Assembly (NCBI GenBank): GCA_002719955.1
Contig: PBFW01000009.1
Location: 299,057 to 363,056, forward strand
Reading direction: 5' to 3'
Source: Deltaproteobacteria bacterium
GTDB taxonomy: Bacteria; Myxococcota_A; UBA9160; UBA4427
Length of the DNA stretch: 64,000 nucleotides
Numbering within the stretch: position 1 is the stretch's first letter; the number at the start of each line of letters is the position of its first letter. Positions 27,301-63,515 of this stretch are shown here, one piece after another. Both the position numbers and the translations under genes were made by a program. Below the pieces are notes generated by a model. That model saw nothing but the letters and a program-made list of their open reading frames with translations, had not been told where the DNA came from and did not search any database.

Positions 27301-27407
27301 CACGCCTTGAGGACGGCGAGGAGGCGACTTCGCGTCTGGCCCTTCGGCATGCGCAGGCCAAGGATGGCGAGTATCGCGATCGCCAGGGCTTGAATCAGGG
27401 TCGTCAT
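24327..27407 (-). CDS. Large polytopic fusion protein: flippase-like (UPF0104 / MprF-TM-like) domain + multi-TM linker + sulfatase-like (alkaline-phosphatase superfamily) domain
   Basis: The N-terminal third has UPF0104-like motifs (FLPSTAGLDGY, PFTIAGEGIREAA). Further TM helices span about aa 420-585. The C-terminal part is NILLVMVDTLRADHLSCYGG...SHASWTKPATASL...TADHGEEFAEHGGFWHG, a sulfatase-fold metal site. I preferred ATG 27407 (GGAGA SD). The ORF extends to 27455. Confidence 0.85.
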   Translation of the reverse strand: MTTLIQALAIAILAILGLRMPKGQTRSRLLAVLKAWFTVLCFWALLTHPIEVEPGESVIALQLIRDQLAGIDAATFWLFVGMATGIKAIGMVSSMYRWQLMLRGQGIELPFKHIFGSFLIGRAIGTFLPSTAGLDGYTLFDAARFSGKTVEVTAAKFVEKVCGFSGVFMTFLVALPFGIGIFGDNAMLFAMVSIPIAAGVIAGLVVVLLFPGFIQWVLENIPLPAKDRITGIVTRISTSAAAYRGHPALVLQILFLSFLVHFTTAVMYYYTALAIGAEGADFWKITFGSAIQIFATVISPFTIAGEGIREAAQYLLLGELIGPAAAIVSAALGFWAAEAPTMLGFVFWWSRNDDYTPAFSRVDGTQVDWEEAARAAASLEEDVDATAGKDVATPLAERLWRTPSAGALAGIAAGIVLGLGEAFVVYRGGLGTESQIFWFGPLMWASVLGGLSILGGLFLAVLPMDKREIGHWVPRLGLGACLIPFGLFVVLFRLRRDVYLEQMPPIGVIAGVLIVAAILLLVILGPMKKLLEPIAEKLTTPLAPIALLVVGVFGIGGLLSLALAPAAAERKGGGALSADLEAKPNILLVMVDTLRADHLSCYGGETPTPNLCRLAEGGTIYQGFSHASWTKPATASLISSTLPSTHNAMSKPSSLSQDLVLIPEAMKSAGYSTGGIVSNVNLAESFGFAQGYDDYYYLGPDYLFGAAESSSKLIVYQLGRQLALGLFGGDETFFNDFYQDSEVVNEVAFDWLDDRKDERFFLFLHYMDAHDPYFEHPYNGVGIARVSMPEPEPEMAERLQELYRGEIDYLDENFGKLLAKLDAEGLYDDTVIVLTADHGEEFAEHGGFWHGLTLYDEQIHVPLVIKWAKGGERPARGANSGIARLIDVGPTLLGVAGVDLPDTMQGVDLRAPFASRLEKDQQVYSEEDHEGNILWSLRTENEKLIVANPNNPRGLAEREYFDVSSDPGERDPYSDPEAEAQLEELAELQRLAAAGQAVEGDDVEMDLETCQRLKALGYVDDCSHLQ

Positions 27408-27619
27408 CGGGCGCGGTCTCCTCTCGGATGCAGCGGGCGCAGGGGTGCCGTGCATTCAGCGGGTGAGTGGTAGGAGGGCGCCGGAAGGTAGCGGCGAAAA
27501 TCCGATGTCGGCTCTTTGCTGCGCGCTCGATCACGCGAATGCGCAAGCGTTCGGCAGTCTCGGGGTGATCCACGGGAAGAGTGGATGCAGTGAGGGCCTG
27601 GGCACGTGGGCGTAGCGCC

Positions 27620-28519
27620 TCAGCGCTTTCGCATGATCTGCCGCCGGGCGCGCTGGTATGCGGTTTCAGTGATGCGCCCCTCGCGCCTCTCCTCGGTGAG
27701 GTCAGCGAGCGCGCGCAGCTGTTCGGGTGTCAGTTGCTCGAGGCTGACGCCGTCCTTCTGGCTGGCCTCGATTTCGCTCTTGGGGACGGGCGACGTCGAG
27801 ATGACCTCGCGTTGCCTTTTCTTGCCCGATGTGGTGCCGGGAAGGCGGAACGCGGATCGGAAGACGTCGTTTTGCCAATCGATCTCGAGATCCTGAACGC
27901 CGGCAAAATAGATCGGGCCTCCGCTCAGGACCCGGAAATCCATCGCCCTGCGATTTCGGATCGGCTCCGGGAGTTTTTTCGTCTCATCGGATTCCTTGAT
28001 GGGCCAGTCCACGCGTCGGAGCAGCAGGTAGAGATGTCCATCGTCCACATAGGCGATGAAGGTCGTCAGAAATTTCTTGTTGAAGATGCCGAGTCGCGCT
28101 TCCTGGCGGGTGACCTTGATGCCGATCTCTTGGTTGGGGTTCGCCTCGGCCAGGCCCTTGGCGAGCAATTCGGCGGTGCGCGGGACCAGGGTCGGGTGAA
28201 AGGCGGGCTGACGAAGCGTGCCCCTGCCCTTTCGAACCGTCTCGACTTCGATCGCGGTCAGGATATGTCGCAGTCTTTGCTGTGAGATGATCGTCGGATG
28301 TTCGTAGCCGCGTTTTTCGACCGAGAAGCCGGTCACCTCTCGCACGAGGTCGACTTCGATCATCTTTCTGTCGACGAGCGAATGGCGCACCGTGCGCGTC
28401 ACACAACCGGGGAGCGAGGCGATCAGAAAGAATCCGATGAGCAGAATGAGGCTGGATCGCCCCTGCATAGGCAGCGGAGTCCAGCCGAAACGAGCCGAAC
28501 GGGTCGGAGTCAGAGGCAT
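27620..28519 (-). CDS. Hypothetical lipoprotein with a C-terminal SHOCT-like helix
   Basis: Lipobox LIASLPGC after a signal sequence. The C-terminus LTPEQLRALADLTEERREGRITETAYQRARRQI is SHOCT-like. The gene starts 4 nt after the feoB stop. Confidence 0.7.
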   Translation of the reverse strand: MPLTPTRSARFGWTPLPMQGRSSLILLIGFFLIASLPGCVTRTVRHSLVDRKMIEVDLVREVTGFSVEKRGYEHPTIISQQRLRHILTAIEVETVRKGRGTLRQPAFHPTLVPRTAELLAKGLAEANPNQEIGIKVTRQEARLGIFNKKFLTTFIAYVDDGHLYLLLRRVDWPIKESDETKKLPEPIRNRRAMDFRVLSGGPIYFAGVQDLEIDWQNDVFRSAFRLPGTTSGKKRQREVISTSPVPKSEIEASQKDGVSLEQLTPEQLRALADLTEERREGRITETAYQRARRQIMRKR

Positions 28520-30869: not shown

Positions 30870-31928
30870 TTATTTGCGAACACGTTCGTCTTGATTTCCG
30901 CGGCCATTTCCGCGCTTCCACACGGAATCTCGCTCGCTTCGCAGCTGGCGGGTCATGAGAGTGTGTCCCGCATCCTGGGGGGTCTTTTCTCCATCGATGA
31001 CCAGGCGTACCTGAGTCGAGATCGGCGCCTCGACGCCCAGCCGATCCGCCAGCCGAACGGCGGCGCGGGTCGTCTGGATGCCCTCGGCGACCTCGCCGAG
31101 TTCGGCCACGATCTCGCCGAGTTTCCGTCCACGCCCGAGCCCGAGCCCGACGCGGCGATTTCGGGAGAGGTCACCGGTGCAGGTCAGCAGCAGATCACCC
31201 ATCCCGGAGAGTCCGAGGAAGGTTTCGGGCTCGGCACCCTGGGCGACGCCGATGCGCGTGATCTCGGCGAGGCCGCGCGTCATCAGGGCGGCCCTCGCGT
31301 TGAGGCCGCTGTCCAGGCCGTCGGACATGCCGACCGCGATCGCGATGACGTTCTTGAGCGCCCCCGCGGTCTCGACGCCGACGATATCGTTGTGCGTGTA
31401 ACAGCGGAACCAGGGGCAGGAGAGCGTGGCCTGAACCGAGATCGCATAGGCCTCTTCGTGGCAGGCCAGGGTCACGACCGTCGGTTGGTGGCGCGCGATT
31501 TCCGCCGCGAAGGAGGGGCCGGATAGCGCGACGAGCCGGGGGTGGTGTTCGGGATCGAGGACCTCCTGGAGAACCCCGTGCATCGTGTACCCCGTCTCGA
31601 ATTCGATTCCCTTGACCGCGGAGACGATGATGGCCCCCGGTTCGATATAGGGGCCGGCCTGGCTCATGACCTCGCGCAGCGAGTGGCTGGGGACGGCGAT
31701 GATGACGAGTTCGCGCCCGGCCAACGCATCGCGCAGGTTCGAGGTCGCCTCGATGCGCGCGGGCAACTCGTATTCGGTCAGGTATCGCGGGTTGTGGCGA
31801 TCGCGGTTGATCGTCTCCGCCACCTCTTCGCGGCGGGACCAGATCTTCACGTCGTTCTCTCTTGCGCAGACCATCGCAAGACAGGTTCCGAAGCTGCCAG
31901 CACCCAGGACGGCGGTCGGTGTATTCAC
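30870..31928 (-). CDS. gpsA: NAD(P)H-dependent glycerol-3-phosphate dehydrogenase
   Basis: Contains AVLGAGSFGTCLA (Rossmann), NPRYL, IIAVPSH, KGIE, GALKNVIAIAVG, and LSRNRRVGLGLGRG. Confidence 0.9.
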   Translation of the reverse strand: MNTPTAVLGAGSFGTCLAMVCARENDVKIWSRREEVAETINRDRHNPRYLTEYELPARIEATSNLRDALAGRELVIIAVPSHSLREVMSQAGPYIEPGAIIVSAVKGIEFETGYTMHGVLQEVLDPEHHPRLVALSGPSFAAEIARHQPTVVTLACHEEAYAISVQATLSCPWFRCYTHNDIVGVETAGALKNVIAIAVGMSDGLDSGLNARAALMTRGLAEITRIGVAQGAEPETFLGLSGMGDLLLTCTGDLSRNRRVGLGLGRGRKLGEIVAELGEVAEGIQTTRAAVRLADRLGVEAPISTQVRLVIDGEKTPQDAGHTLMTRQLRSERDSVWKRGNGRGNQDERVRK

Positions 31929-32007: not shown

Positions 32008-32036
32008 TTGACGTTCTGGGGGGCTACGGCTATTTT
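32008..32036 (+). promoter_or_regulatory. Sigma70-like promoter candidate for the nuo-like operon
   Basis: TTGACG (32008-32013), a 17 nt spacer, then TATTTT (32031-32036), in the gpsA / nuoA-like divergent intergenic region. Confidence 0.4.
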
Positions 32037-32183: not shown

Positions 32184-32567
32184 TTGAGCGTCCCCGGGTT
32201 CGAAACCGAGCTTGATCTGGTGCGGTCGATCCTCTTCGTCGGGTTGACCGTCGTCGCCGTGACGCTGGTGCCCTGCCTCGCCGCGACCCTTCGTCGCGCT
32301 CTCCCGGTCAGGCCGCGCGAGACCCGGCCGCTCGAGCCGGCCTCGTTCGGCCATTCCCAGAAAGCTCGCCGCTCGCCGCGTCACGCGATCCTCCTCCATC
32401 GCGGTCTCGTCGGCGCCCTTTTCGTGGCGCTCGCGGCCCTCTTCTTGATCCCGGCGGCCGCTGCCCTCTCTGCGATCGGTGTCGCGGCGATCCCGTCCGC
32501 GATGGCCTTCGTCCTGCCGACCCTCCTGGTGACGCTCCACGCCCGTCATCGGACGGCCCGCGAATGA
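32184..32567 (+). CDS. Highly divergent NuoA-like membrane protein
   Basis: It has NuoA size and topology (3 TM) if started at TTG 32184. The loop PLEPASFG corresponds to PFESG, and RRSPRHAILLHRGLVGALFVALAALFLIPAA to [26 protein letters not shown]. The stop overlaps the nuoH-like ATG (ATGA). The start is uncertain, and the ORF opens at 31995. Confidence 0.5.
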   Translation: MSVPGFETELDLVRSILFVGLTVVAVTLVPCLAATLRRALPVRPRETRPLEPASFGHSQKARRSPRHAILLHRGLVGALFVALAALFLIPAAAALSAIGVAAIPSAMAFVLPTLLVTLHARHRTARE

Positions 32568-33739
32568 GTGCGCTCACCCTCATGATCGCCTGGCTGGCCA
32601 GCGTTTCGGTGACGCTGATCGGGTGCGCTCTTTTTGAGCGAAATGCGCGATTGGTCGCGCGACCCGGCCGTCCGGAGTTGAATCCGCCCCGGGCGCTCTG
32701 GGGCGGCCAGCCCGAGCGCCCGCCCGCGCATGCGATGAGCGCTCGCGCGCTCGCCGGATTCGCGCGAATCGTTCGCCGTCCGCTCCGCGTCGCTGACCAT
32801 CGTCCCGGGCTTCGACTGCTGGGGCGACTCGGCACCTGTTTCTCGCTCGCGTTCGTTCTGGCGATGTTGCCCTTCTTCGGGACCTGGGGCGGGGGGCCCA
32901 TGGACGCGCCCCTGCTCCTGCTGGACCTTCGACATGGTCTCTCGGCAATCGGTTTTCTGCTCTTGTTGACCTCGTTCGCCCGCATCGCGGTGGGTCTCTC
33001 GGAACGAAATGCCTGGTCGCGCATCGGAAGCGCGGGTCAGGCGAGTCGATCGATCGCCGCGCTCGCGCTGCTGATATTGGTTCTTGCGCCCCTCGTGGTG
33101 GCTTCGGGCTCGCTCCGGCTCCACGATATCGTATTAGGTCAGCAACTCCCGATCGCGCCGATCGGATGGCTGCTCGAGACCTTCGACGGGCCATTCTTCC
33201 AAATCTTGCGAGCATGGCCGATCCCCGCCTGGAACGTCTTCACGCAGCCGCTGACGGCGATCCTCTTCGTTCCGGCGATGGCGCTGCTTCTCGGGAGCCC
33301 GCGCATCGATGATCCGACGAGGGGGTCGCTCGCGGCGGCGGGTGTCGGCCTCGACGCGGCGCCGATGGATCTCTATTGGTCGCGACTCGACGCAAGGCTC
33401 TCGTTCGCACTTGCGGCTGGACTCTTCGTGACACTCTTTCTGGGGGCGGGCTCGATTCCCTTTCTCGAGCCGGAAGAATTCGTGTCGGGGCTCGCGCCCT
33501 TCCTGGGGGAGGTGCTGCCGAAATTGATGGTCCTCGGGCTGCATCTCGTCACCTTCCTGGCGAAATCACTATGCGTGCTCGCGGCGGTTGCGCGGCTGAA
33601 GCGGGTGGCTGCGGTGGGCCGGGTGGATCGAGCGCTTCGCCTGGCAACGCGACGACTGCTTCCGCTGGCCTGGGCGAACCTTCTCCTCGTCGCCGCTTCG
33701 ACGCTCTGGTTTGCTGAATTCATCGGGAGTTCGGGTTGA
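32564..33739 (+). CDS. nuoH: Divergent NADH-quinone oxidoreductase subunit H-like protein
   Basis: Collinear with NuoH. FERNARLVARPGRPELN corresponds to FGERRLLGLFQNRYGPN, DLRHGLSAIGFLLL to DLNIGILFFLM, GSLRLHDIVLGQQ to GSFNMTDIVNSQ, and WNVFTQP to WNVIPQF. The C-terminal LAKSLCVLAAVARLKR corresponds to LKTAFFMMMFILIRASLPR. Confidence 0.8.
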   Translation: MSALTLMIAWLASVSVTLIGCALFERNARLVARPGRPELNPPRALWGGQPERPPAHAMSARALAGFARIVRRPLRVADHRPGLRLLGRLGTCFSLAFVLAMLPFFGTWGGGPMDAPLLLLDLRHGLSAIGFLLLLTSFARIAVGLSERNAWSRIGSAGQASRSIAALALLILVLAPLVVASGSLRLHDIVLGQQLPIAPIGWLLETFDGPFFQILRAWPIPAWNVFTQPLTAILFVPAMALLLGSPRIDDPTRGSLAAAGVGLDAAPMDLYWSRLDARLSFALAAGLFVTLFLGAGSIPFLEPEEFVSGLAPFLGEVLPKLMVLGLHLVTFLAKSLCVLAAVARLKRVAAVGRVDRALRLATRRLLPLAWANLLLVAASTLWFAEFIGSSG

Positions 33740-34245
33740 TGGGTGGTGTGGAACTCGGACTCGGTGTCGCGCTCCTTGCGGCGTTCGCCTCGATCGTGAC
33801 GGGTCGTCATCTGACGCGCTCGATCGTTGCGGGCGCGATCTCCTTGGCTGGACTCGCGCTCGCCCTGACCTCATCCGGCGCGGGTTTCGTCGGCTTCTTC
33901 GTTCTGACCGTCGGGGCATCCGTTCTGGCGACGATCCAGCTTTTCGGATGGATGCTCGTCGATGTCGATCGAGACCATCTCCCTCCCACGGATCGGGTGA
34001 CCGCGATCGCGCGCGGGATCGCGTTCCTCCTGCTGGGCGCGGGGCTCGTTCTGCTCGTCGCGCTCGGACTCGAAGGCGGCGTTTCGAAGCCGATCTCTGG
34101 ATCGGCGCCGATGGCCTCGCCGCGCGAGATTGGTGAACGTTTCTTCGGGGTCTGGCGGGACCTCGCGACGATCTGTGGGATCGCGCTCTCGGCGGGCCTG
34201 CTTGCCACGCTGATGACGCTTCGCGACGATGGGGAGAATCGTTAG
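33739..34245 (+). CDS. nuoJ: NuoJ-like membrane protein
   Basis: About 168 aa with the NuoJ helix pattern. GAGFVGFFVLTVGASVLATIQLFGWMLV corresponds to GAYFAGALEIIVYAGAIMVLFVFVVMML. ATG 33739 overlaps the nuoH-like TGA (TGATG). TTG 33736 is an alternative. Confidence 0.75.
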   Translation: MGGVELGLGVALLAAFASIVTGRHLTRSIVAGAISLAGLALALTSSGAGFVGFFVLTVGASVLATIQLFGWMLVDVDRDHLPPTDRVTAIARGIAFLLLGAGLVLLVALGLEGGVSKPISGSAPMASPREIGERFFGVWRDLATICGIALSAGLLATLMTLRDDGENR

Positions 34246-34248
34246 GCG

Positions 34249-34575
34249 ATGGAAAGCCTGAACGAATCCGCGAGATTTCTGGCCATTGGCGCGACGGCGC
34301 TTTTCTGGATTGGCCTGCTGGGATTGCTCTGGCGTCGGAGTCTGATCGGGATGCTCGTCGGCGTGCTCTTCGGTTGGCTCTCGGTCGCAGTCGCTGGAAT
34401 TGCTTTTGTCGGCTTTCAACGCGACGCGGAGGGAGTCGTCGGAGGCGGGATCTTCGTTCTGTGTGCTGCCCTCGTCTGCGCGCTTCAAGTTGCCTTGGGA
34501 CTTTCTCTCGTCGTCGCGCGCATCGCCCGCCGAGGTACGCTCGACGCGCAAAACGCGTGCCTGCTGGAAGGCTAG
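34249..34575 (+). CDS. nuoK: NuoK-like membrane protein
   Basis: 108 aa, 3 TM. GLLGLLWRRSLIGMLVGV corresponds to GLTGLVIRRNLLFMLIGL, and CALQVALGLSLVVARIARR to AAAEASIGLALLLQLHRR. Confidence 0.8.
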   Translation: MESLNESARFLAIGATALFWIGLLGLLWRRSLIGMLVGVLFGWLSVAVAGIAFVGFQRDAEGVVGGGIFVLCAALVCALQVALGLSLVVARIARRGTLDAQNACLLEG

Positions 34576-34585
34576 GGAGCCGTTC

Positions 34586-36634
34586 TTGACCAATCTGGAG
34601 GAAAGCATCGGTGTTTCGCTGATTCGTTGGATCGCGATTCTGCCCTTTGTGGCCGCGATCACTCATGGTCTCCTGATCGGTCTGGTCCGGGCCAAGATTT
34701 CGGACCGTTCGGTCTGGGCGATTTCGCTCTCCGCGCTCGGCGCCGCCTTCGGGATTTCGGCGCTCTCGATCTTCGACCTCTTCGCCGCGGGTGGATTCGA
34801 GCCGATCCTCGATTCGGTCGGGCCGTGGATCGGTGGGGGAGTCGGGCAGCGCAGCTTCAGTGCAGAGATGACTTTTCAATTCGATCCCCTCTCCGCAGTT
34901 TTCTGCCTGGTGATCACGAGCGTCGCACTCGCCGTCTACCTGCATACGATCGGACTGATAGCGGGTGGACATCTCGACGGCGAAGGCGGCCATCGCAGCT
35001 TTGCCATGCTCGACCTGCTCGTCGGCTCGACGCTCGTTCTCGTGTTGGCGGATAATCTCCTTCTCTTCTTTCTGGGTTGGGCGGGCGTTGGGATCGCGTC
35101 ACAACTCTTCGCTTCTTTCGACTTCGGTGAGCGCGAGGCTTCGCGTGCTGGCGCGACGACATTCGTCATCGGCCGCATCGGCGACCTCGGACTCCTCGCC
35201 GCGATGCTCCTTCTCTTCGACGGTTTGTCCCGGGCGGGTGCGCCGGCGCTGACCTTTCGGGGAATCGAGGCGGCCTTCCGCCTGCTCGAAGGGCAGGGCG
35301 TGCTCTGGCTCTCGTGGACCACGGGCGACGCGCCGCCGCTGCTCGAGGTCGTGGGCTTTGGTCTGGTTCTCGCCGCGCTGACCAAATGCGCTCAGCTCCC
35401 GCTTCATTTCTGGCTTCCGGCGGCGGCCTCGGGGCCGATCTCGGCGAATGCGCTGATGCAGTCCTCGACGACGGTGATCGCGGGGATCTATGTATTGTTG
35501 CGCTTCTCTTTTCTGCTCGAGACCGTCCCGGACTCGATGAGGATGTTGATCGTGGCGGGTAGCACCACGATGTTGCTGGCGAGTTTCGCGGCGACGACCC
35601 AACTCCACCTGCCTCGACTGGTCGCGTTCACCACCTCGAGTCTGCTCGGACTCGTGATCGTCGGAATTGGGATCGGCGCCTACTCGGCCGCCACATTCCT
35701 GATCCTGACCCACGCCTTCGTGAAGGCCCACCTGATTCTAGCGATGGGGCTCGTCATCACGACGCTGAAGGGCGAGACGGATCTTCGCCGAATGGGTGGG
35801 CTGGCTCAGCGATTGCGGTGGACTCAGGGAATCTTTGGCCTCGGCTGTTTGGCTCTGATCGGCCTCCCCCCCTTCGCGAATTTCTTTCCGATCGAAGAGC
35901 TGCTCGCGTTTCTGTGGATCTCCGGGCGACCGGAGAGCAGTCTGGTCGCGGCGACGATCCTGGTGAGTCTGGGCCTGCTCGCTTTCGCCGTCGGCCGCGC
36001 GTTCTTCCTGATCTTCTGGGGCAATCTGCGCCCGAGCGGCCCGGTGGAAGATCGGCTTCGGGATCCAACGGGTTGGCGACAGCACAGCCTGACCGGGCTG
36101 GCGGTCATGACTCTTGCGGCGGGCGGGCTCTCGGCGTCACAGTTCTGGGGGGATCGGTTAGGCATCCCCACATCCGAGATGGATTCGATCGGCCATTTCC
36201 TGGTGGCGTCGATCCCGGGCTCTCCGGACCCCGAAGTCTCGGGCATCGAACGCTGGACCCTGATCGGCGCCCTGGTCGTGAGCTTGCTCTGCGGTCTGCT
36301 CGTCGCCGGATTGCGTTATGCGCGTCGAGGCTATCGCGGGGAATCGAAGCAGGAGGTGATTCGTTTCTCCATGAACGCGATGCGGGAGATGTTCTTCATC
36401 GAGCAGGCCTATACGATCCTCTTGGTTCGGCCGCTGCGGCGTCTCTCCCAGTTCGCACTCGTCGGTGGAATCGAATATCGACTGATCGATCGAGTGGTGG
36501 TCTCCGGCGGATCGGGGCTCATTCGTCGCATGGTGTGGAGCGTGCTGCGTCGCCTTCAGAACGGGCAATTGCAGAGCTATGCGTTGCTCGGAATGCTCAC
36601 GGTGCTTGTCATCGTGACGTGGATGGTCGTCTGA
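34586..36634 (+). CDS. nuoL: NuoL-like antiporter-type subunit (682 aa)
   Basis: VLVLADNLLLFFLGWAGVG, TKCAQLPLHFWLP, and THAFVKAHLIL are all collinear with NuoL. TTG 34586 lies 7 nt after a GGGAG SD. The ORF opens at 34400 but overlaps nuoK. Confidence 0.9.
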   Translation: MTNLEESIGVSLIRWIAILPFVAAITHGLLIGLVRAKISDRSVWAISLSALGAAFGISALSIFDLFAAGGFEPILDSVGPWIGGGVGQRSFSAEMTFQFDPLSAVFCLVITSVALAVYLHTIGLIAGGHLDGEGGHRSFAMLDLLVGSTLVLVLADNLLLFFLGWAGVGIASQLFASFDFGEREASRAGATTFVIGRIGDLGLLAAMLLLFDGLSRAGAPALTFRGIEAAFRLLEGQGVLWLSWTTGDAPPLLEVVGFGLVLAALTKCAQLPLHFWLPAAASGPISANALMQSSTTVIAGIYVLLRFSFLLETVPDSMRMLIVAGSTTMLLASFAATTQLHLPRLVAFTTSSLLGLVIVGIGIGAYSAATFLILTHAFVKAHLILAMGLVITTLKGETDLRRMGGLAQRLRWTQGIFGLGCLALIGLPPFANFFPIEELLAFLWISGRPESSLVAATILVSLGLLAFAVGRAFFLIFWGNLRPSGPVEDRLRDPTGWRQHSLTGLAVMTLAAGGLSASQFWGDRLGIPTSEMDSIGHFLVASIPGSPDPEVSGIERWTLIGALVVSLLCGLLVAGLRYARRGYRGESKQEVIRFSMNAMREMFFIEQAYTILLVRPLRRLSQFALVGGIEYRLIDRVVVSGGSGLIRRMVWSVLRRLQNGQLQSYALLGMLTVLVIVTWMVV

Positions 36635-36635
36635 C

Positions 36636-38279
36636 GTGGCGTTCAGTCCGGCGGAGCATCTGATCCTGATCGTTGTGGCGCTGCCGGCACTCACGGCCTT
36701 CGGGCTGATGGGGACCGGACTCGTGCTCGGGCAGGTCGGAATTCCCACGCTTCCGGAGGCGCTCTGGCGGGCGATCGGTCTCACCGCCGCGTTCATCACC
36801 TTTGCCGTGATGCTCTTCATCGCCACGTCTGAATTCGATCCCGAGGTGTTGGGTCTGCAACAGATCGCCTCCTATGCCTGGTCGGAATCTTTCGGTGCGA
36901 AATTCCTGCTCGGAGTCGATGGAATCGGTCTGTGTTTCATGTTATCGACGACGGGAATCGTGCCGCTGGCGATGTTGTCTGCGAAAGGCGAACCGCATAA
37001 CTCCACACGTTCGTGTGTGCTCGTTTGCCTGCTGCTCGAAACGGCGCTGCTCGGGGCCTTGGCCTCTGCGAATCTGCTTTCGTTCATCTTCTTCTGGGCG
37101 GCGAGCTTGATTCCGATCCTGCTCTGGATGGGGCGCTGGGGCGGACTCGGCCGAGGTCGAGCGGCTTCGCGTATCTGGACGATCGAATCGATCGGTCTGG
37201 CCGCTCTGCTCTTCGTCGCCTTCGTTCTCCACGACTCGACCGCGGTTCAGCTCGGGATTCCGACCCTGGACCTGATCGAAGTGGGTGCTGACGCGGGGCG
37301 CAGTCTTCTGGATGTCGAGATCGCCGAGGCGGATCAATGGATCCTCTTCCTGGCGATGGTCTTCGCGTTCTCGACGCGATTGCCCATCGTGCCGCTTCAT
37401 TTCTGGCTCCCGGCAGCACACGCGTCCGCGCCGACCGGATTGTCCGCGCTCCTGGCCACGGGATTCGTCCAGACTGCGGCGATCGGCCTGCTGCGTTTCG
37501 CGCTGCCACTCTTCCCGGACGCTGCGGTGGCGGCTGGACCGGTACTCTCGGTGTTGGGGATCACCGCACTGGTCTACGCGTCGCTGATCGCCCTCGTGCA
37601 GAAGGAGCTCAAGCACCTCGTTGCGTATTCGTCGGTGGGCTATGCGGGCTTTGCCCTGTTTGGGATCTCGACGCTGAACGTCCAGGGGGTGACCGGTGCG
37701 GTCCTTCAGCTCTTGGTCCACGGTCTGGCCACCGCGGGACTCTTCATGTTGATCGGCTTCCTTTCGATCCGGCGGAATACGACGGAAGTCGTCGCCTTCG
37801 GCGGCCTCGCCAAGCCGATGCCGGTCTGTGCGTTCTTCTTTGGATTGATGGTGCTGTCGCTGATGGGATTGCCCTTGCTGGGTGGCTTCGTGGGTGATCT
37901 CTTCGTTCTCCTGGGCAGTCTCGAAACGAGACGCGAACTCTCGGTCATCGCGCTAATCGCGATGGTCGTTTCCGCATCCTATCTGCTCTGGGTCCAGCGT
38001 CGGCTCTTTCTCGGGCCCGTCGATGAGCCCGCGAATCGGGGGCTCATCGATCTCGACCGGATCGAGCGGGCCATTCTGCTCACGCTGGCCATCCCGATCG
38101 TCGCGATCGGCGTTTATCCGAATCCGGTCCTGCGGCGAGTCGAACCGACGGTGCTCGAACTTCTCTATCAGATGGAGCGCAGGTCGATCCGGACCGACGA
38201 GGAGAAACTCGAATCGGAGACGGAGAGCGAGCTCGTTCGACTCGACTCCGCAGGACTCGAGCCGGGAGGGCGGCCATGA
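36636..38279 (+). CDS. nuoM: NuoM-like antiporter-type subunit (547 aa)
   Basis: LPIVPLHFWLPAAHASAPT, AAIGLLRFALPLFP, LVAYSSVGYAGF, and LVHGLATAGLFML are collinear with NuoM. GTG start 1 nt after the nuoL stop. Confidence 0.9.
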   Translation: MAFSPAEHLILIVVALPALTAFGLMGTGLVLGQVGIPTLPEALWRAIGLTAAFITFAVMLFIATSEFDPEVLGLQQIASYAWSESFGAKFLLGVDGIGLCFMLSTTGIVPLAMLSAKGEPHNSTRSCVLVCLLLETALLGALASANLLSFIFFWAASLIPILLWMGRWGGLGRGRAASRIWTIESIGLAALLFVAFVLHDSTAVQLGIPTLDLIEVGADAGRSLLDVEIAEADQWILFLAMVFAFSTRLPIVPLHFWLPAAHASAPTGLSALLATGFVQTAAIGLLRFALPLFPDAAVAAGPVLSVLGITALVYASLIALVQKELKHLVAYSSVGYAGFALFGISTLNVQGVTGAVLQLLVHGLATAGLFMLIGFLSIRRNTTEVVAFGGLAKPMPVCAFFFGLMVLSLMGLPLLGGFVGDLFVLLGSLETRRELSVIALIAMVVSASYLLWVQRRLFLGPVDEPANRGLIDLDRIERAILLTLAIPIVAIGVYPNPVLRRVEPTVLELLYQMERRSIRTDEEKLESETESELVRLDSAGLEPGGRP

Positions 38280-39754
38280 ATCCGGTCTTCTATCCGGCGG
38301 TCGGGGCGCTCTTCGTGCTCGCGCTCGATCTGATGGGCAGCGCGGGGAGGCCCGATGAGCATGGACCGCGCAGGGCGGCGCTCTCGGGGATTCGGCTCGG
38401 GGCGGTGGCGCTCTTTTCGTTGGCTGCGGTGGTCTTCTCGTTGCGGGGCGGAGATCGTCGCTCTGGCGACGAACTCCTGAGCCTCGATTCATTCGGTGTA
38501 TTCGGCCTGGGCTATATCGTTTTCGCCGGCCTCTTGGTTCTGAGTCTCTCCCTCACACATTTTGGGATGGCGCGCTCGCGTCCGACCGAACCGATCGCCC
38601 TCCTGCTCTTCGCCTGGGCGGGCTCGATGATCGCGATAGCGACCGATCACCTGCTGGTGCTGCTCGTGGCGATCGAGTTGGCGTGGCTACCCATGATCGC
38701 GCTGATCGCGATCGATTCGCGTCGGCTCTCATCGAGCGAGTCGAGTCTCAAGGCCTTCTTCGCGCATGTTTTCGCGAGTCTGATCTTCGCGCACGGGATC
38801 GCCTTCGTGTTCGCGGAGAGCGGGCGTCTGGATCTCGCTGCGCTGTCGGGGAGGGGTGTCGAGGGGAATCTCCTTTTCGAGGTCGGGTTCACGCTGGTGC
38901 TGCTGGGATTGATCGCTCGCGCAGCGATCGCGCCCTTCCATCCCTGGTCACCCGACGTTCACGAGGGCGCACCGAGCTTCGTCACCACGCATATCGCGAC
39001 AGTGGCTCAGGCGACGACCTTCTTCGTTCTGTTGCGGATCCTTCACGCCATTCCCGTCGTCGAACTCACCGACGCTGAGTCGTTAGGTGTTCGGGTTCCT
39101 CAGCTGCTCTCCCTGCTCGGCCTGTTGGGTCTGCTCTGGGGGCACGCGATGGCCCTGGTTCAGGTCGGTCTGCGTCGGCTGGTGGGGTGGCTCGGAGTGG
39201 GGCAGATCAGCTTTCTCACGCTCGCATTGGTGGAAGCCCGTGGAGAGGGCGCCGAGGGGCTGCTGCTCGGTTTGATCGCATCGGGTGTCGCGATCACCGG
39301 CATCATGGCCACATTCAGTTCACTCAGTCATCACGAGCGCGCCTGTGAACACGTGGGTGACCTGGCGGGAATGATGCGCAGGAGTCCGATCCGCGCTGTG
39401 CTGCTCGGGATCTTCTTTCTCTCGCTCGCTGGCTTTCCGGGGACCTTCGGCTTCGTCGCACGTTTCAAGATCCTCGCCGCGCTCGAACACGGAGGGCATC
39501 GCTGGGAGCTCGTCGCGGGACTGGCTGCGACGGTGCTCGCGCTGACAGCGGTGGGTCGCCCCTTGCTCGAGATGTCGCGATCGACCCGGGACGGCCGCGA
39601 GGGCAGCCGTGCGCTTTCGAACGAGCAATTTGTATTGGCGATCTGTGGTGCGATCATCGTCTACTTCGGGGCTATGCCCGTGATGGGTGAAACAGCGCTC
39701 GCGGGCCAGCTCATGATCTGGATCGAGCGGGCGGTCGCGTCGCTGCGCTTCTGA
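38276..39754 (+). CDS. nuoN: NuoN-like antiporter-type subunit (492 aa)
   Basis: LLVAIELAWLPMI, AIAPFHPWSPDVHEGAPSFVT, and LSLAGFPGTFGFVARFKIL are collinear with NuoN. The ATG overlaps the nuoM stop (ATGA). Confidence 0.9.
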   Translation: MNPVFYPAVGALFVLALDLMGSAGRPDEHGPRRAALSGIRLGAVALFSLAAVVFSLRGGDRRSGDELLSLDSFGVFGLGYIVFAGLLVLSLSLTHFGMARSRPTEPIALLLFAWAGSMIAIATDHLLVLLVAIELAWLPMIALIAIDSRRLSSSESSLKAFFAHVFASLIFAHGIAFVFAESGRLDLAALSGRGVEGNLLFEVGFTLVLLGLIARAAIAPFHPWSPDVHEGAPSFVTTHIATVAQATTFFVLLRILHAIPVVELTDAESLGVRVPQLLSLLGLLGLLWGHAMALVQVGLRRLVGWLGVGQISFLTLALVEARGEGAEGLLLGLIASGVAITGIMATFSSLSHHERACEHVGDLAGMMRRSPIRAVLLGIFFLSLAGFPGTFGFVARFKILAALEHGGHRWELVAGLAATVLALTAVGRPLLEMSRSTRDGREGSRALSNEQFVLAICGAIIVYFGAMPVMGETALAGQLMIWIERAVASLRF

Positions 39755-40326: not shown

Positions 40327-42273
40327 CTACCAACGCGGTTCCGGACTGATCAGCCGACGGATGCTGCCGTCCCGGCGCGTGATCTGAAGGTCGTCCAGCA
40401 GCGCCATCAGGGGCATGGCCGTGCGTCGACTCGTTCCGATCAGCGCCTTGAGCGTCTGCGTGTCGAGTTCGTCACTCGAATCGAAATGGGCGACGACGCG
40501 ATCGATCAGATCGAGCACGTTCGTGCGGTCGAAGAAGAGATCGTCCGGCGCCGCGACGAGAGTGCCCTCACGTTCGAGGTAATGGGCAATTTCGCGAAGG
40601 CTACGCTCGCTGCGCCCCGAGTCCTCGGCGACCGTGCGCAGGGCGGGCGCGTCGAGGCCGGTCCCGCCGAATCGGTCCCGCAGCAGTTCGGCCAGCTCGG
40701 ATTGCTCTTCGTCCAGGGTCGATTCGAAACCGACACGGGTGACGATTTCGCCCCGGATGGTGATCTCATTGCTCGAGGCGAGACGCTTCAAGAGCAGCGC
40801 TCCGGCGTCGCTCGAGACGTTCCCGGGGAGCGTTCCCGTCAACGCTGCGCGGGGCATGCCCGCTTGAAGCGGTTCGCGCGAATGGAAGGATTCGAGGGCC
40901 CGGACGAGATCGGCCATCAGGCGTTCCGCGGCGGATTTGGCCAGACATAACGAAGCATCGACGCGCAGGATCGTCTCGGTCTCGACGAGTATCGCGAGTG
41001 CCCGCTCGAGTTCGCCAGAATCGAGTCCGGTCTCGAGGCCGAGCGCTTTCGTCGTCATGCCGCGCAGCCCCGCGCGCTCGATCCGCAATTCGATCCCCTC
41101 CGCTGGGTCGCCTCGGGACATGCGCGTGAGCTCTGCGGCGAGTTCGGGATCGCCTCGGCGGCGATGGGGCGGGGCGATATCGAGGACGATTCCACCGCCG
41201 AGGGTCGAGCCGACGCCGGCGTCGCGCGCGAAGCCGCGCAGGACGAAGCGGTCACCGGGGAGAAGGGGCAGCGGCAGGCCATCGACGTGGATCCGCCCGA
41301 GACCGCGCTCGCCGGGACCGATCGGCTTCTCCCCGATCAGGGCGACGCGCGCGCGGCGCTCTGCCGTGCCCGCGAGGAGTTCGACCGAAGCAGCGTCCTC
41401 GAGCGCTGTCTTGCGCGCGATCCAGTGCAGGCTCGTATCGAAGGAAGCGGTCGCCGGAACCGCATCGGGTTCGGTGAGCAGATCCCCGCGACCGATCTCG
41501 TCGCTGCCGACCCCTTGGAGATTGACCGCGATGCGTGCGCCGGATGTGGTTTCTGCGACCGCGTCACCGTGGCGTTCGAGGCCGCGGATCTTCGCCTTTC
41601 GCGCGCCGGGTTCGAGAACGATCGCGTCGCCCACACGTCGGGGTCGGCCGGACCAGGTGCCCGTGACGACCGCTCCGAATCCGTGCTTGGTGAACGTCCT
41701 GTCTATGAAGAGCCGTGAGGGTCGACCATCGTCGTCGCGAGTGGGGGCGGAACGGATCAGCGCTTCGAGTGTCTTGCGAACCCCTTCGATTCCGTCGCCG
41801 GTCTCGGCGCTCGCGGCGATGATCGGCGCGTCGGCGAGAGGCCCTTCGGCGAGGAGATCGTGGACCTCTTCCGTCGCGAGTTCGATCATTTCCTCGTCCA
41901 CGAGGTCTGATTTGGTGAGCACGACGAGTCCGCGATCGACCCCGAGCAATTCGCAGATCGCGAGATGTTCGCGGGTCTGCGGCATCACGCCCTCGTCCGC
42001 AGCGACGACGAGCATGACGAGATCGAGGCCGCTGGCCCCGGCCACCATCGTTCGCACGAAGCGTTCGTGCCCGGGGACGTCGATGAGGGCAACGCGCAAG
42101 CCCTTGCTCAACTCGAGCGGTGCGAAGCCGAGTTCGATCGTGATGCCGCGGGCCTTTTCCTCCGGGAGTCGATCGAGATCGTGACCCGTCAGCGCTCGGA
42201 CGAGCGAGGTCTTGCCGTGATCGATGTGGCCAGCGGTGCCGAGGACGAGGCTTTGCGGTTCGTCGTCAGCCAT
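40327..42273 (-). CDS. selB: Selenocysteine-specific translation elongation factor
   Basis: G-domain [30 protein letters not shown], and TKSD. This is followed by EF-Tu-like domains II/III and a long winged-helix C-terminus typical of bacterial SelB. I chose ATG 42273 (MADDEPQS...). The ORF extends to 42396, into serS. Confidence 0.9.
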
Positions 42274-42283
42274 GCGCGCGGCC

Positions 42284-43561
42284 TCAGCGGGGTCCGATGC
42301 GGTCCATGCCCATATAGGGCACGAGCGCTTTCGGGATCGTGATGCTGCCGTCGGCCTGCTGATGGTTCTCGAGGAGTGCCACGATCGCACGGGCATTCGA
42401 GATGGCCGTTCCGTTCAGCGTATGGACGAGTTCGTTCTTCTTTTCTCCGGCGCGGCGGAAGCGGATCTTCAGGCGTCGCGCCTGGAAGTCGGTGCAATTC
42501 GAGGTGCTCGTGACCTCGCCGTACTCGCCGGCTTCGCCGCGTCCCGGCATCCAGGCCTCGAGATCGAATTTTCGATAGGCGGGGGCGCCGAGGTCGGCGC
42601 TCGCGATGTCGATCACGCGATAGGGGATCTCGAGGGCATCGAAAATCTGCTTCTCGAGTCGCAGCAATTCGACGTGTTGGGCGTCGGAATCCTCTGGACG
42701 ACAGAAGACGAACATCTCGACTTTCGTGAATTGATGGACGCGATAGAGGCCCTTGCTCTCACGTCCGTGGGCACCCGCCTCGGTGCGGAAACAATGGGAC
42801 ACGCCGGCGAGCTTGAGCGGGAGTTCTTCCTCGGAAAAGATCGTGTCCGCGTACATGCCTCCGAGCGTGATCTCGGCGGTTCCGATCAGGCAGAGTTCGT
42901 GGTCTGCGACGGAGTAGATCTGGGTTTCCTCGCCGCGCGGACTGAAGCCGAGGCCCTCGATCACATCCGGGCGCGCCAGATCGGGAGTGACGATGGGGAT
43001 GAAGCCCTCGGGCAGGAGCCGGTCGAGCGCGAAGCGCTGCAGAGCGATCTCGAGAAGTGCGACTTCACGTTTCAGGTAATAGAATTTCTGCCCCGACACC
43101 CTGGCGGCGCGCTCGAAGTCCACGAGGTCGAGGGCGGTCGCGAGTTCCAGGTGGTCCTTGGCGTCGAAACCCAGTGCGCGGGGCTCACCGATCGTCGCCA
43201 GAAGATTGAAATCCTCCTCGCGGCCCCTGGGCGAATCGGGATGGAGAAAATTTGGCAGACAGCGAAGGGCCCGTTCGAGCTCCTGCTCGGCGACGCGAAG
43301 TTCGTTTTCATGGGCTCCGACTTCGTCCTTCAGCCGGCGTCCCTCGATCGTGTGGGCTTCTCGTGCGCGCTCATCGAGGCGCTTTTTGCCGGCCTTCTGG
43401 TGCTCGTTTCGAAGTCGATTCGCTTCGTTCAGCTTCGTGCGCAGCGCGTTCGTTCGCTCGTGCAGAGCGATCGTGGCATCGATGTCCACATTGATGAAGC
43501 GCGCCCGGCAGCTCTCGACGATCTCGTCGCGACGGTCTTGAAGAATGCGCGCATCCAGCAT
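42284..43561 (-). CDS. serS: Serine--tRNA ligase
   Basis: MLDARILQDRRDEIV..., an N-terminal coiled coil, and class II motifs (FRTEAGAHGRESKGLYRVHQFTKVE, GEVTSTSNCTDFQARRL, TLNGTA). 425 aa from ATG 43561. The ORF extends to 43795. Confidence 0.95.
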   Translation of the reverse strand: MLDARILQDRRDEIVESCRARFINVDIDATIALHERTNALRTKLNEANRLRNEHQKAGKKRLDERAREAHTIEGRRLKDEVGAHENELRVAEQELERALRCLPNFLHPDSPRGREEDFNLLATIGEPRALGFDAKDHLELATALDLVDFERAARVSGQKFYYLKREVALLEIALQRFALDRLLPEGFIPIVTPDLARPDVIEGLGFSPRGEETQIYSVADHELCLIGTAEITLGGMYADTIFSEEELPLKLAGVSHCFRTEAGAHGRESKGLYRVHQFTKVEMFVFCRPEDSDAQHVELLRLEKQIFDALEIPYRVIDIASADLGAPAYRKFDLEAWMPGRGEAGEYGEVTSTSNCTDFQARRLKIRFRRAGEKKNELVHTLNGTAISNARAIVALLENHQQADGSITIPKALVPYMGMDRIGPR

Positions 43562-43848
43562 GGGGGCGTAGGGAAGCACACGCCCCCAGCCCTTGCCATG
43601 AATCGCGTTGCCGGCTCCCGGCATCCCCTGATTCGACCCGATCCGTTGGCTGAAAGAGGCGAGGCGCCTAGATTTCACCTCGAAAGCCGGATCGAGACCT
43701 TTTCGTCGGATTCCGGCGGGCAAGGGGCTGGCCTTTTCGACGATCGTGCGCGGATGGCGGAAGGGGACGAGCGAGCGGAGATGGGGGATCGACAACCGAA
43801 GCGGGTATTCGGCGCACTGCGCTCGATCGCTCGAAGGGTTCCGGCGCG

Positions 43849-52291: not shown

Positions 52292-52353
52292 ACGATTTCG
52301 AGCGTCCGCCCCGGGGATCCGGACGCCGCCGGGGTGGCGCTACCTTGGTCCCC

Positions 52354-58060: not shown

Positions 58061-58504
58061 ATGGACTTTTCCGTTCTACCTCCGATCAACGCGGCGCTGA
58101 ACGCGACGGCGATCGCACTCCTGGTCGCGGGGCGTCGCTTTGCGAGACGCGGCGAGATCGACCGTCATCGATCGACCATGTTGTCCGCGTTCGGTGTCTC
58201 GAGCCTCTTTCTCATTCTCTATCTGGGACACAAGGTCTCACGAAATTTTGAAAACACGACCTTCAACGTCGAGGGTTGGGCGAAGACGGCCTATCTGGTG
58301 TTGCTCGGATCCCACGTTCTTCTCGCGATGAGCGTTCCAGTTCTTGCGTTCCTCCTGGTCAGACTCGGGCTGAAGGACGAGCGCGAACGGCATCGGCGGA
58401 TCGCTCGGGTCGGCTGGCTGATCTGGATCTACGTCTCCGTGACCGGGGTGCTGATCTACCTCCTCCTATACCCCTTCAACCCCGCTCCGATCGTCGCTCG
58501 CTAG
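58061..58504 (+). CDS. DUF420 domain membrane protein (CtaM-like, oxidase-associated)
   Basis: 4 TM. LPPINAALNATAIALLVAG...HRSTMLSAFGVSSLFLILYL...AYLVLLGSHVLLAM...WLIWIYVSVTGVLIYLLLY is typical DUF420. Confidence 0.85.
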   Translation: MDFSVLPPINAALNATAIALLVAGRRFARRGEIDRHRSTMLSAFGVSSLFLILYLGHKVSRNFENTTFNVEGWAKTAYLVLLGSHVLLAMSVPVLAFLLVRLGLKDERERHRRIARVGWLIWIYVSVTGVLIYLLLYPFNPAPIVAR

Positions 58505-59267
58505 CGGTCGGGCTCCCGGTGAGCGGGGGCTTCGGCGGTGTTCTGCAGCGAAACGTTGCGGTTGTTGTCTCGACTTCCATCCGCTGATTGACCCATGCGT
58601 GGAAGACCCCGCTATGCTTGGTCCATCTCGAGCAGACCCTTCCGGATTCGTCCGGGCTCGGGATTCTTTGACGAGCCCCACTCGGGTGAAGACCGGGTTC
58701 GAGTCGGGGTCGGGGTCGGAAAATGCGGGTCGAGTCGGCTATGAATGGAAACCGGCTGGAAACGGGTCTTTACGCCCTGGGGGCGGCCGGTCGATGGATC
58801 GCACGAATGACGCCGATGCGATCGGTGGGATGGACTTGAAAGGGCCCGGCGACTTGACTAATTGGAGATCGATGGGCTACCTCGCGGGCGGTTTTCTAAA
58901 CCAGAACGCCCCCCTAAGAGGCGCTCCCCGGTTCAATCTGGCGTCGACTGGAATGGTTGCGAGATCTGCCATGGCCTCGCGGCCAGGATTCGTGTCGGCC
59001 CCGGCAATCTGTGCAGGTCGTCCGGGTGTCGGTCGGATGATGGGTTCGTTGGCTGGCGGGTGGGTCGGTGGATCGAACCAGTGATCGCTGAGCCAGCCGT
59101 TATGTGGATGGATGGATGACGCGTCGAAGTTGGGTGGAGGCGGCGGCGAAGGGATTGAGCGGGATGGCTCGGATCCATGAGTCCGCAGCGGGTCCGACGC
59201 GATGAAAATGGGAACGATGGATTCTTGCCCGTGCGTGATCGAGCGAATCATCAAACGAATCGATCAG

Positions 59268-59975: not shown

Positions 59976-59978
59976 ACG

Positions 59979-60107
59979 ATGTCCGATGAAGAACCTCATG
60001 TCGAACCGACACCGCCCGGCTGGGAAGAAGTTTCGTTTCGCATCTTCACGATGAGCATGGCGGGTATTTGCAGCTTCATCGCTGCCGTGTTCATTTTTGT
60101 CATCTAG
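59979..60107 (+). CDS. Small single-TM protein (42 aa) between the cytochrome c and subunit II genes
   Basis: The ATG lies 3 nt after the cytochrome c stop. The translation is MSDEEPHVEPTPPGWEEVSFRIFTMSMAGICSFIAAVFIFVI. It is not in the ORF track because it is shorter than 60 aa. The call rests on position and the TM helix only. Confidence 0.4.
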   Translation: MSDEEPHVEPTPPGWEEVSFRIFTMSMAGICSFIAAVFIFVI

Positions 60108-60162
60108 CGGCTCGCCCGACGCTTGGCTGATCGCCTCGTTTTCCAGGTAGAAAGCAGAAATA

Positions 60163-60855: not shown

Positions 60856-61008
60856 TACGAGCGTGGAGCCAATCGGATCACCCTGAGCATGAGGCTGGAC
60901 CGAGCCGGAGAACACGAGAACCGGCCGGATCGAGCCAAGTCAGCCACCGAGAGTACAGCCGAAGCGAGCCTCTAGAAGACGCGCTCCGGATCCCGAGGAG
61001 AACGAGAC

Positions 61009-62721: not shown

Positions 62722-62879
62722 TCATGTTCGGCCTGCGCGCTCCCCTGGCTGGAGGCGCGCATGGCCTTGATGGGGCCGCATCGGAGGCGGATCCCGAAGA
62801 GCCTGCACGCACGACGCGCGCTGCAAATAGACCGGGACAACCGAATGGGGAGTCCCGAGAGACGAGACGGAGAAAACTC

Positions 62880-63455: not shown

Positions 63456-63515
63456 GAGCGTCCGTTCATCGTAATTTGGCCGCCCACCCAACGGCGAAGC
63501 ATTCGAGGCAACACA

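Follow-up and report, generated by a model that had tools for sequence, protein, structure and literature searches.

The 64,000-nucleotide (nt) stretch of Deltaproteobacteria bacterium DNA analyzed here, hereafter the window (contig PBFW01000009.1, positions 299,057 to 363,056; G+C content of ∼64%), carries a nuo-like operon at positions 32184 to 39754 that encodes homologs of all seven membrane core subunits of respiratory complex I: NuoA, NuoH, and NuoJ to NuoN. To judge from gene order and residue comparisons, the operon is the positional ortholog of a true complex I operon from which nuoE, nuoF, and nuoG were deleted, and the residues of the acidic E-channel and most of those of the lateral proton relay have been replaced in its products while the genes remained under purifying selection. 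We assign a probability of about 0.6 to the reading that the cluster encodes a headless, nonpumping membrane arm with a structural or otherwise noncanonical role.

The seven open reading frames (ORFs) lie on the + strand, with overlapping or nearly touching junctions. The NuoA-like ORF (32184..32567; ∼127 amino acids [aa], three transmembrane [TM] helices) overlaps the NuoH-like ORF (32564..33739; 391 aa) by 4 nt, and the latter overlaps the NuoJ-like ORF (33736..34245; 169 aa) by another 4 nt. A 3-nt gap precedes the NuoK-like ORF (34249..34575; 108 aa), and a 10-nt gap, with GGAG ahead of a TTG start, precedes the NuoL-like ORF (34586..36634; 682 aa). The NuoM-like ORF (36636..38279; 547 aa) follows after 1 nt and overlaps the NuoN-like ORF (38276..39754; 492 aa) by 4 nt. 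Pfam and NCBIfam models identified the H-, J-, K-, L-, M-, and N-like products, with best matches to Nuo models and not to Mrp models: NADHdh for the NuoH-like protein (E value, 1.3e-17), Oxidored_q3 for the NuoJ-like protein (1e-6, under the gathering score), Oxidored_q2 for the NuoK-like protein (3.9e-10), TIGR01974 for the NuoL-like protein (7e-103, covering positions 2 to 630 of 630, with the C-terminal lateral-helix region included in this full-length homolog), TIGR01972 for the NuoM-like protein (1.6e-102), and TIGR01770 for the NuoN-like protein (6e-59). Family profiles searched against PDB chains matched Escherichia coli NuoH (7nyh_H; 2.4e-30), Paracoccus NuoJ (8qby_J; 1.6e-11), and mycobacterial NuoK (8e9g_K; 5.8e-20). 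The profile was needed for the NuoH-like protein, for which a single-sequence phmmer search of the PDB returned a marginal match to NdhA alone. The NuoA-like ORF matched no library model, and its family profile matched NdhC (3e-9), Nqo7 (2.6e-8), and E. coli NuoA (8e-4); its orthologs in locus L021 and on the P0168 contig match Pfam Oxidored_q4, as does, weakly, the ortholog in locus L025. An AlphaFold2 model of the NuoM-like protein (predicted template modeling score, 0.85) had NuoM, ND4, and NdhD chains as its best PDB matches, with template modeling scores of 0.8 to 0.9. A Pfam scan of 37 further window ORFs revealed no homologs of NuoB, NuoC, NuoD, NuoE, NuoF, NuoG, or NuoI, and the operon contains no mrpB, mrpE, mrpF, or mrpG gene.

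Residues were compared with the E. coli K-12 subunits of the RefSeq record, in E. coli numbering, by pairwise phmmer alignment, by MAFFT alignment with 16 to 19 orthologs, and by alignment of family profiles to PDB chains. The canonical relay pattern, the roles of its residues, and their numbering were taken from published work (PMC9271201). An earlier note, prepared from the sequence alone with by-eye alignments, had claimed that canonical Glu and Lys residues are replaced in nearly every subunit encoded by 32184 to 39754. All three kinds of alignment bear this out, and the by-eye register holds under profile alignment except at two residues. The NuoL-like protein has lost Glu144 (E144A; 35081), His254 (H254Q; 35459), His334 (H334L), and Lys399 (K399I; 35891); Asp178, His338, Lys342, and the TM7 Lys229 are kept, and Asp400 is present as Glu. 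The first two losses and the retained Lys229 had been recognized in the note; its statement that the TM12 Lys is also kept was wrong, since the motif on which it relied, THAFVKA, contains the TM11 Lys342, and the TM12 Lys399 (GFFSKDE) aligns with Ile (FFPIEE). In the NuoM-like protein, E144A (37098), K234R (37377), and K265Q (37470) were called correctly, and H322Y is a further change; Glu407, which had been listed as lost, is conservatively replaced (E407D; 37896), as NFVGEFM aligns with GFVGDLF. His348 and the TM4 Glu are kept. The NuoN-like protein has the anticipated K217R (38918), K247Q (39008), and K395R (39461) changes and the retained Glu133, with H305Q (39203) in addition. At the TM5/TM7/TM8/TM12 relay positions, the three antiporter-like subunits thus read A, K, Q, I (L); A, R, Q, D (M); and E, R, Q, R (N), each of which departs from the canonical pattern.

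The changes that the note had reported in the remaining four subunits were also found. Both membrane Glu residues of the NuoK-like protein are replaced (Glu36 by Leu at 34366-34368 and Glu72 by Gln at 34486-34488), TM3 of the NuoJ-like protein carries E55V and Y59G (33901-33915), and the NuoA-like protein carries D79A (32427-32429) and E81A (32433-32435). In the NuoH-like protein, Glu157 is Leu (33062-33064), the TM1-2 loop is rich in Arg and Pro, and the TM5-6 loop has lost its acids (E216T, E218G, and E220L; 33317-33331), with PRIDDPTRGSLAAAG in place of the canonical PFDQPEAEQELADG. Every component of the acidic E-channel (NuoK Glu36 and Glu72, NuoA Asp79 and Glu81, NuoJ Tyr59, NuoH Glu157, and the NuoH TM5-6 loop acids) is therefore replaced in the window. 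The inter-subunit charge pairs between TM12 and TM5 are gone as well: Arg396 of the NuoN-like protein faces Ala155 of the NuoM-like protein, whose Asp421 faces Ala166 of the NuoL-like protein. A search for new buried charges that could compensate for these losses found no convincing case. Glu135 of the NuoM-like protein, the TM4 Glu, was considered as such a charge and rejected because most canonical NuoM proteins have that Glu, which E. coli NuoM lacks. Overall, the membrane subunits of the window are 18 to 30% identical to those of E. coli, compared with 37 to 45% for canonical relatives.

The origin of the operon is suggested by its relatives. In an exhaustive HMMER search of 1.84 billion representatives, the window's family corresponded to one 50% cluster, and the next-best matches formed two groups, namely, ∼19 clusters of noncanonical NuoM-like proteins and a set of canonical-pattern relatives. 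The closest of the latter are 42% identical, have the pattern EKKHHE at the six key positions, and are part of a large family to which NCBI gives the name Myxococcota or Myxococcales. Two members located on long contigs (L031 and L032) were examined. In both, the gene order is feoB-feoA-gpsA followed by nuoA-nuoE-nuoF-nuoG-nuoH-nuoJ-nuoK-nuoL-nuoM-nuoN, with selB-serS next in L032, and every key residue is canonical in all seven membrane subunits. Their flanking genes match those of the window at 59 to 62% (gpsA), 61 to 65% (feoB), 64% (serS), and 50% (selB) identity and are as distant as the flanking genes of the degenerate deep orthologs described below. The genes nuoE, nuoF, and nuoG are missing between the nuoA-like and nuoH-like genes of the window and of at least 21 related loci, and they occupy exactly that place in L031 and L032. 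The association had no exceptions in this sample: canonical residues occur in both EFG-containing loci (2/2), and all of the at least 21 EFG-less loci are degenerate, having lost the NuoK and NuoA acids (apart from a NuoK Glu72 retained in two close orthologs) together with L, M, and N residues in a lineage-specific mosaic. Because an orthologous canonical operon occupies the locus, the window cluster appears to be the ortholog of the main operon and not an added copy, and the loss of the N-module at that locus explains how the relay could be lost. In a neighbor-joining (NJ) tree, the canonical loci with shared synteny fell at a distance from the degenerate clade; this placement was treated as long-branch noise, and synteny was relied on instead.

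The L031 and L032 operons do not contain nuoB, nuoC, nuoD, or nuoI, such that the Q-module must be encoded elsewhere in those genomes. An argument based on the missing nuoI between the H and J genes, which would have indicated loss of the whole peripheral arm, was withdrawn for this reason. The split in these two operons, with N-module genes among the membrane-subunit genes, is itself unusual, and L031 has in addition a 188-aa ORF without a Pfam match between nuoM and nuoN (L031:11631-12197) that overlaps both genes and is absent from L032 and the window. Other arrangements were also observed. In L026, a sigma-70-family gene and a 589-aa gene without a domain match are inserted between nuoG and nuoH (L026:3177-5415). 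A complex I operon in L028 has two adjacent NuoM-like genes (D-E-F-G-H-I-J-K-L-M-M-N; L028:8399-11584), an arrangement that presumably resembles the "2M" variant of complex I. In a different headless arrangement on a Logan contig (L027:5721-12982), a CitMHS_2-family transporter gene is directly followed by NuoJ- to NuoN-like genes without NuoA or NuoH, and the M-like protein (P0205) reads E-Q-K-Q-H-D at the six key positions.

The substituted state is maintained by selection in the close family. More than 100 NuoM-like homologs with 62 to 80% identity were found in metagenomes and in metagenome-assembled genomes (MAGs) labeled Myxococcota or Deltaproteobacteria, and a genome scan yielded 19 species-level loci, all ordered orf-feoB-gpsA, A-H-J-K-L-M-N, and selB-serS. 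The ∼7.5 kb of coding sequence, noted earlier to be free of stops and frameshifts, is intact in the window and in 16 to 19 species-level genomes, with the exception of two draft MAGs. Two single-base (+1) insertions interrupt the 5′ part of the nuoN-like gene in L003 (L003:11652-12036), which comes from the presumably long-read Microflora Danica MAG set, and one frame break lies beside a run of N in the nuoM-like gene of L019 (L019:1200-1530). Faulty assembly of the draft MAGs may account for these breaks, or they may mark incipient pseudogenization in single lineages. Pairwise Nei-Gojobori ratios of nonsynonymous to synonymous substitutions (dN/dS) ranged from 0.08 to 0.33 for the H to N genes, which is in the range of selB and two to three times the values of gpsA and feoB, and from 0.3 to 0.6 for the NuoA-like gene. 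For the closest pair (dS of 0.13 to 0.22), the ratios were 0.105 (L), 0.152 (M), 0.115 (N), 0.16 (H), 0.19 (K), and 0.31 (J), compared with 0.06 (gpsA), 0.05 (feoB), and 0.16 (selB) in the flanks. The ratios are below the value near 1 that the neutral drift weighed in the earlier note would predict, and frame breaks are confined to the two draft MAGs; the family does not have the stops, frameshifts, and relaxed dN/dS of a pseudogene cluster.

Selection is also visible at the substituted positions themselves. Of the 22 relay-axis positions, 17 are invariant, compared with 30% of all family alignment columns (binomial P = 8e-6). Across 120 NuoM-like family members, position 234 is Arg in 119/119, position 265 is Gln in 117/120, positions 407 and 348 are Asp and His, respectively, in 120/120, and position 144 is never acidic. 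The six key positions of the NuoN-like protein are invariant in 19/19 orthologs. The position of NuoK Glu72 is less uniform, with Gln in 15/17 close orthologs and Glu in 2/17. Across species, several synonymous codons encode each new residue (Arg by CGA, CGG, CGT, CGC, or AGA; Gln by CAG or CAA; Asp by GAT or GAC) while the amino acids stay fixed, which directly indicates purifying selection on the substituted state itself. The Arg-Gln-Arg/Asp axis is under tight site-specific constraint in the window's family, which may reflect either buried polar packing or new chemistry.

Deeper relatives have diverged in a different manner. The NuoM-like proteins of the ∼19 noncanonical clusters carry other patterns, such as ERKQHE, QLPQHE, ERAQLE, and EKKHHT, and group together in the NJ tree, which was built without support values. 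Four of these clusters could be placed on contigs, and all four are membrane-only A-H-J-K-L-M-N operons at the gpsA-adjoining locus. gpsA adjoins the operon in every locus examined, degenerate or canonical, and selB-serS follow in most of the degenerate loci. In at least 21 related loci, neither the operon nor the sequence up to 10 kb from it was found to contain peripheral-arm genes. Between the deep orthologs and the window, flanking genes are 60 to 67% identical, compared with 28 to 38% for L, M, and N and 27 to 31% for H, and tblastn did not detect A and J; the arm genes have therefore evolved about twofold faster than their neighbors. Residues were scored in the three deep orthologs with DNA (L021, L022, and L025). 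In L021, the N subunit is fully canonical, M differs at K234R and H322Q alone, and the H loops TM1-2 and TM5-6 are near canonical. The sole change in M of L025 is E407T. In L022, Leu, Pro, and Val occupy axis positions, and the H-like protein (306 aa) has neither TM1 nor the first loop. None of the three retains the NuoK and NuoA acids. The best-preserved subunit accordingly varies (L in the window, N and M in L021, M in L025, and none clearly in L022), and some lineages have hydrophobic residues (Leu, Pro, Val, or Ile) at axis positions. The substitutions seen in the window are fixed among the 120 family members, and the deep orthologs carry mosaics of their own. The proposal that the operon is selected for a noncanonical role and is not simply decaying is supported by the dN/dS ratios, the intact ORFs, and the codon turnover; its suggestion of altered ion chemistry is weakened because the deeper orthologs carry quite different substitutions, including hydrophobic ones. 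The degenerate clade consists of marine, mostly uncultured Myxococcota, which we infer to be GTDB Myxococcota_A class UBA9160, and the window probably belongs to it. One related MAG is named UBA4427, presumably the GTDB taxon of that name in Myxococcota_A, class UBA9160; a 2026 preprint reportedly treats UBA4427 as a genus of class UBA9160 and proposes the name Vahlivitia for it.

These results can be accommodated by the following scenario, in which the origin and the relay loss are shown at the level of sequence and the present-day function would follow from them only by inference. A deletion of nuoEFG in the ancestor of a marine Myxococcota clade left a translationally coupled seven-gene membrane-arm operon. 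The L, M, N, K, J, A, and H proteins would still assemble as a membrane complex, as suggested by the folds, the full-length NuoL, and the helix-packing motifs that are kept under purifying selection. With the acidic E-channel lost, the acids linking the quinone site to the antiporter-like subunits are gone. The TM7/TM8/TM12 relay of M and N, Lys-Lys-Lys/Glu in the canonical enzyme, has been rewritten to Arg-Gln-Arg/Asp, with the TM5 Glu of M and L changed to Ala and the central His and TM12 Lys of L gone. As Arg would hold its proton at physiological pH and Gln is unable to carry one, a redox-driven lateral proton relay is not expected to operate. After the loss of the N-module, evolution accelerated with selection maintained, and the selected function would rest on the architecture and on the fixed buried polar residues. 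The arm would most likely have a structural or organizing part in the aerobic respiratory membrane, or else provide a noncanonical, residual ion path confined to the best-preserved subunit, the L-like one. Given the hydrophobic axis residues and the varying identity of the best-preserved subunit, the function common to the clade seems to rest on architecture and not on one ion path. We regard as possible, while leaning against it, a more far-reaching version in which the arm is a new stand-alone membrane machine whose rewritten axis was selected for something new, such as conduction or sensing of an ion other than the proton, charge-locked organization of the respiratory membrane, or docking of an unknown partner at the Arg-rich NuoH/NuoA heel.

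Several observations weigh against a headless, nonpumping arm. The NuoL-like protein retains Asp178/Lys229, His338, Lys342, and Glu at the Asp400 position, and the canonical N and near-canonical M and H loops occur together in L021, so that some movement of protons or other ions is possible in both. That the new Arg, Gln, and Asp residues vary so little within the family could mean chemistry beyond packing. The absence of nuoB, nuoC, nuoD, and nuoI from the window operon says nothing about the Q-module because the canonical relatives lack these genes in the operon as well. L026 is an otherwise complete complex I operon whose NuoM has K234R alone, and a single conservative change need not inactivate; single changes should therefore not be over-read, and it is the combination that counts. 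The degenerate clade is taken to be monophyletic on the strength of synteny and of an NJ tree without support values. Finally, we know of no citable precedent for a purely structural complex of ∼55 helices.

The likeliest alternative to a headless arm is a complex I encoded by a split operon, in which surviving NuoB, NuoC, NuoD, and NuoI made elsewhere in the genome would dock on the arm to give an 11-subunit-type quinone reductase with a non-NADH donor, uncoupled or weakly coupled, that is, a nonpumping or low-stoichiometry redox valve. Such a split is the ancestral arrangement, as L031 and L032 attest, and the retention of NuoH and NuoA homologs makes sense mainly if they form a docking heel, whose loops are strongly conserved in the shallow family and, for NuoH TM1-2 and TM5-6, near canonical in L021. 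Among the deep orthologs, however, conservation of the heel loops disappears along with that of H, A, and J as a whole, and the H-like protein of L022 has no TM1 or first loop at all. NuoB and NuoD belong to the best-conserved subunits of complex I, and H, A, and J would not be expected to evolve faster than L, M, and N, as they do, if they contacted them. Known 11-subunit complexes, moreover, keep the E-channel and relay that are lost here in all lineages. We therefore consider a docked Q-module unlikely.

Two further explanations remain. A stand-alone secondary ion transporter, either a cation/proton antiporter of the Mrp type or a uniporter, might use a path through Asp178/Lys229, His338, Lys342, and Glu400 of L, the TM4 Glu and Asp407 of M, and Glu133 of N, or an Arg/Gln-lined path for another ion. 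The greater-than-average constraint on the substituted polar residues fits this idea, as does the survival of some relay residues in one of the three subunits in every lineage; the host is marine (Tara Oceans), and a role in moving H+ or Na+ has been proposed for the membrane-only nuoAHJKLMN operons found in actinomycetes of marine origin (PMC3314556, PMC6676996). Against it stand the loss of the TM12-TM5 charge pairs between subunits and the lack of MrpB, MrpE, MrpF, and MrpG homologs, and the changing best-preserved subunit and hydrophobic axis residues argue against one conserved ion path. In Mrp antiporters, moreover, MrpA and MrpD themselves require this Lys/Glu pattern, and a transporter of this kind seems improbable to us. 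A decaying, nonfunctional remnant of complex I on its way to being lost would account for the nuoEFG deletion, the missing catalytic residues, evolution faster than that of the neighbors, and the frame disruptions in L003 (N) and L019 (M). Those two disruptions may be assembly errors, since L003 is presumably a long-read MAG and the break in L019 adjoins a run of N. The 7.5 kb free of stops in the window and in ∼20 other species of deep divergence, the low dN/dS persisting even in the closest pair, the preserved start/stop overlaps, and the synonymous turnover around invariant amino acids at many sites nearly refute decay.

Compared with known systems, the cluster is closest to the myxobacterial complex I operon nuoA-EFG-H-JKLMN of L031 and L032, with which it shares the seven subunits, their order, their folds, and the feoAB-gpsA and selB-serS flanks; the latter operon has nuoE, nuoF, and nuoG and canonical residues, whereas the window lacks these genes and its relay is replaced. 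The 11-subunit enzymes (cyanobacterial and chloroplast NDH-1, Fpo, and Campylobacterota Nuo) likewise lack NuoE, NuoF, and NuoG and keep the membrane arm, but they retain NuoB, NuoC, NuoD, and NuoI beside the membrane genes together with a canonical E-channel and relay and still pump. Mrp antiporters (MrpA to MrpG) resemble the cluster as stand-alone complexes of NuoL/M/N-like, NuoK-like, and NuoJ-like proteins without a redox module; they have MrpB, MrpE, MrpF, and MrpG, depend on the Lys/Glu pattern, and lack NuoH and NuoA, and the window cluster is the reverse on each count. In marine actinomycetes (Salinispora, Streptomyces SM17 and SM18, and Kocuria), a membrane-only "partial NDH-1," nuoA-hyp-H-J-K-L-M-N, has been proposed to comprise marine adaptation genes and assumed to pump H+ or Na+ (PMC3314556, PMC6676996). 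By these published descriptions, it shares with the window the A, H, J, K, L, M, and N genes without B to G or I and the marine association, but it accompanies a complete nuo operon as an additional copy and apparently was acquired horizontally, whereas the window cluster is a vertically inherited ortholog of the main operon. A search of a plasmid collection for membrane-only nuo clusters returned complete second nuo operons of rhizobia alone, and a search of the literature on relay-deficient, membrane-only Nuo clusters returned nothing beyond the actinomycete papers and one general overview of incomplete forms of complex I. A vertically inherited, relay-deficient headless arm was not reported in the searchable literature, which does not prove that no report exists.

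The complex I field uses point mutants to sort the buried Lys, Glu, and His residues into those required for pumping and those required for folding. The locus described here provides a natural series that complements such mutants, with canonical residues where nuoEFG is present and differing degenerate mosaics where it is not, and it separates architecture from catalysis over deep evolutionary time. Purifying selection on the arm in every state suggests, on the basis of these comparisons, that it still folds and assembles, and the series as a whole suggests a selectable function of the membrane arm that does not depend on redox-driven pumping. For metabolic reconstructions of marine MAGs, "NuoAHJKLMN" clusters should not be annotated as proton or sodium pumps. 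The cluster is a concrete target for expression, cryo-electron microscopy, and ion-flux work.

The operon is flanked upstream by feoB and gpsA and downstream by selB and serS, all on the minus strand and identified with Pfam. The divergent neighbor gpsA (30870..31928) lies outside the complex and marks the orthologous locus, whose other edge is formed by the convergent selB and serS genes (40327..43795). A sigma-70-like promoter candidate on the + strand, TTGACG-17-TATTTT (32008..32036), was found by consensus scan in the divergent intergenic region between gpsA and the nuoA-like gene. The NuoA-like start was placed at TTG 32184, with GAGG 8 nt upstream; GTG 32220 is an alternative. An ATG at 31995 was rejected because conservation in the NuoA-like family is confined to the C-terminal ∼110 residues and this codon lies outside the conserved part; the location of the promoter candidate downstream of 31995 also argues against it.

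Farther upstream, a 299-aa ORF without a Pfam match (27620-28519, minus strand) is located between feoB and a gene for a 1042-aa fusion of an LPG_synthase_TM domain and a sulfatase/phosphodiesterase domain (24327-27455, minus strand). The position of the 299-aa ORF is kept in most of the related loci examined (27 to 77% identity) and in the deep orthologs, and the fusion gene is kept upstream of the feoAB-gpsA block in the four deep-ortholog loci with gene calls extending that far (L021, L022, L023, and L025). The fusion gene and gpsA give the operon a lipid-related neighborhood. At 52027-56952, a very long + strand ORF (∼1530 to 1640 aa) encodes an Lhr-type DEAD-box helicase, with genes for APH-family kinases on either side; the minus-strand ORFs of 234 to 660 aa that overlap it have no domain matches and are probably not genes. 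The window also contains an aa3-type cytochrome c oxidase cluster at 58061-63890 (DUF420, dihaem cytochrome c, COX2, COX1, COX3, and COX4_pro), which indicates that the host respires oxygen and is an aerobe. The window was traced to a 78-kb Tara Oceans contig (ERZ908336), and a COX1 identical to its own occurs on a 489-kb contig of another sample. A second COX3-like ORF is located just beyond the end of the window, on contig L029.

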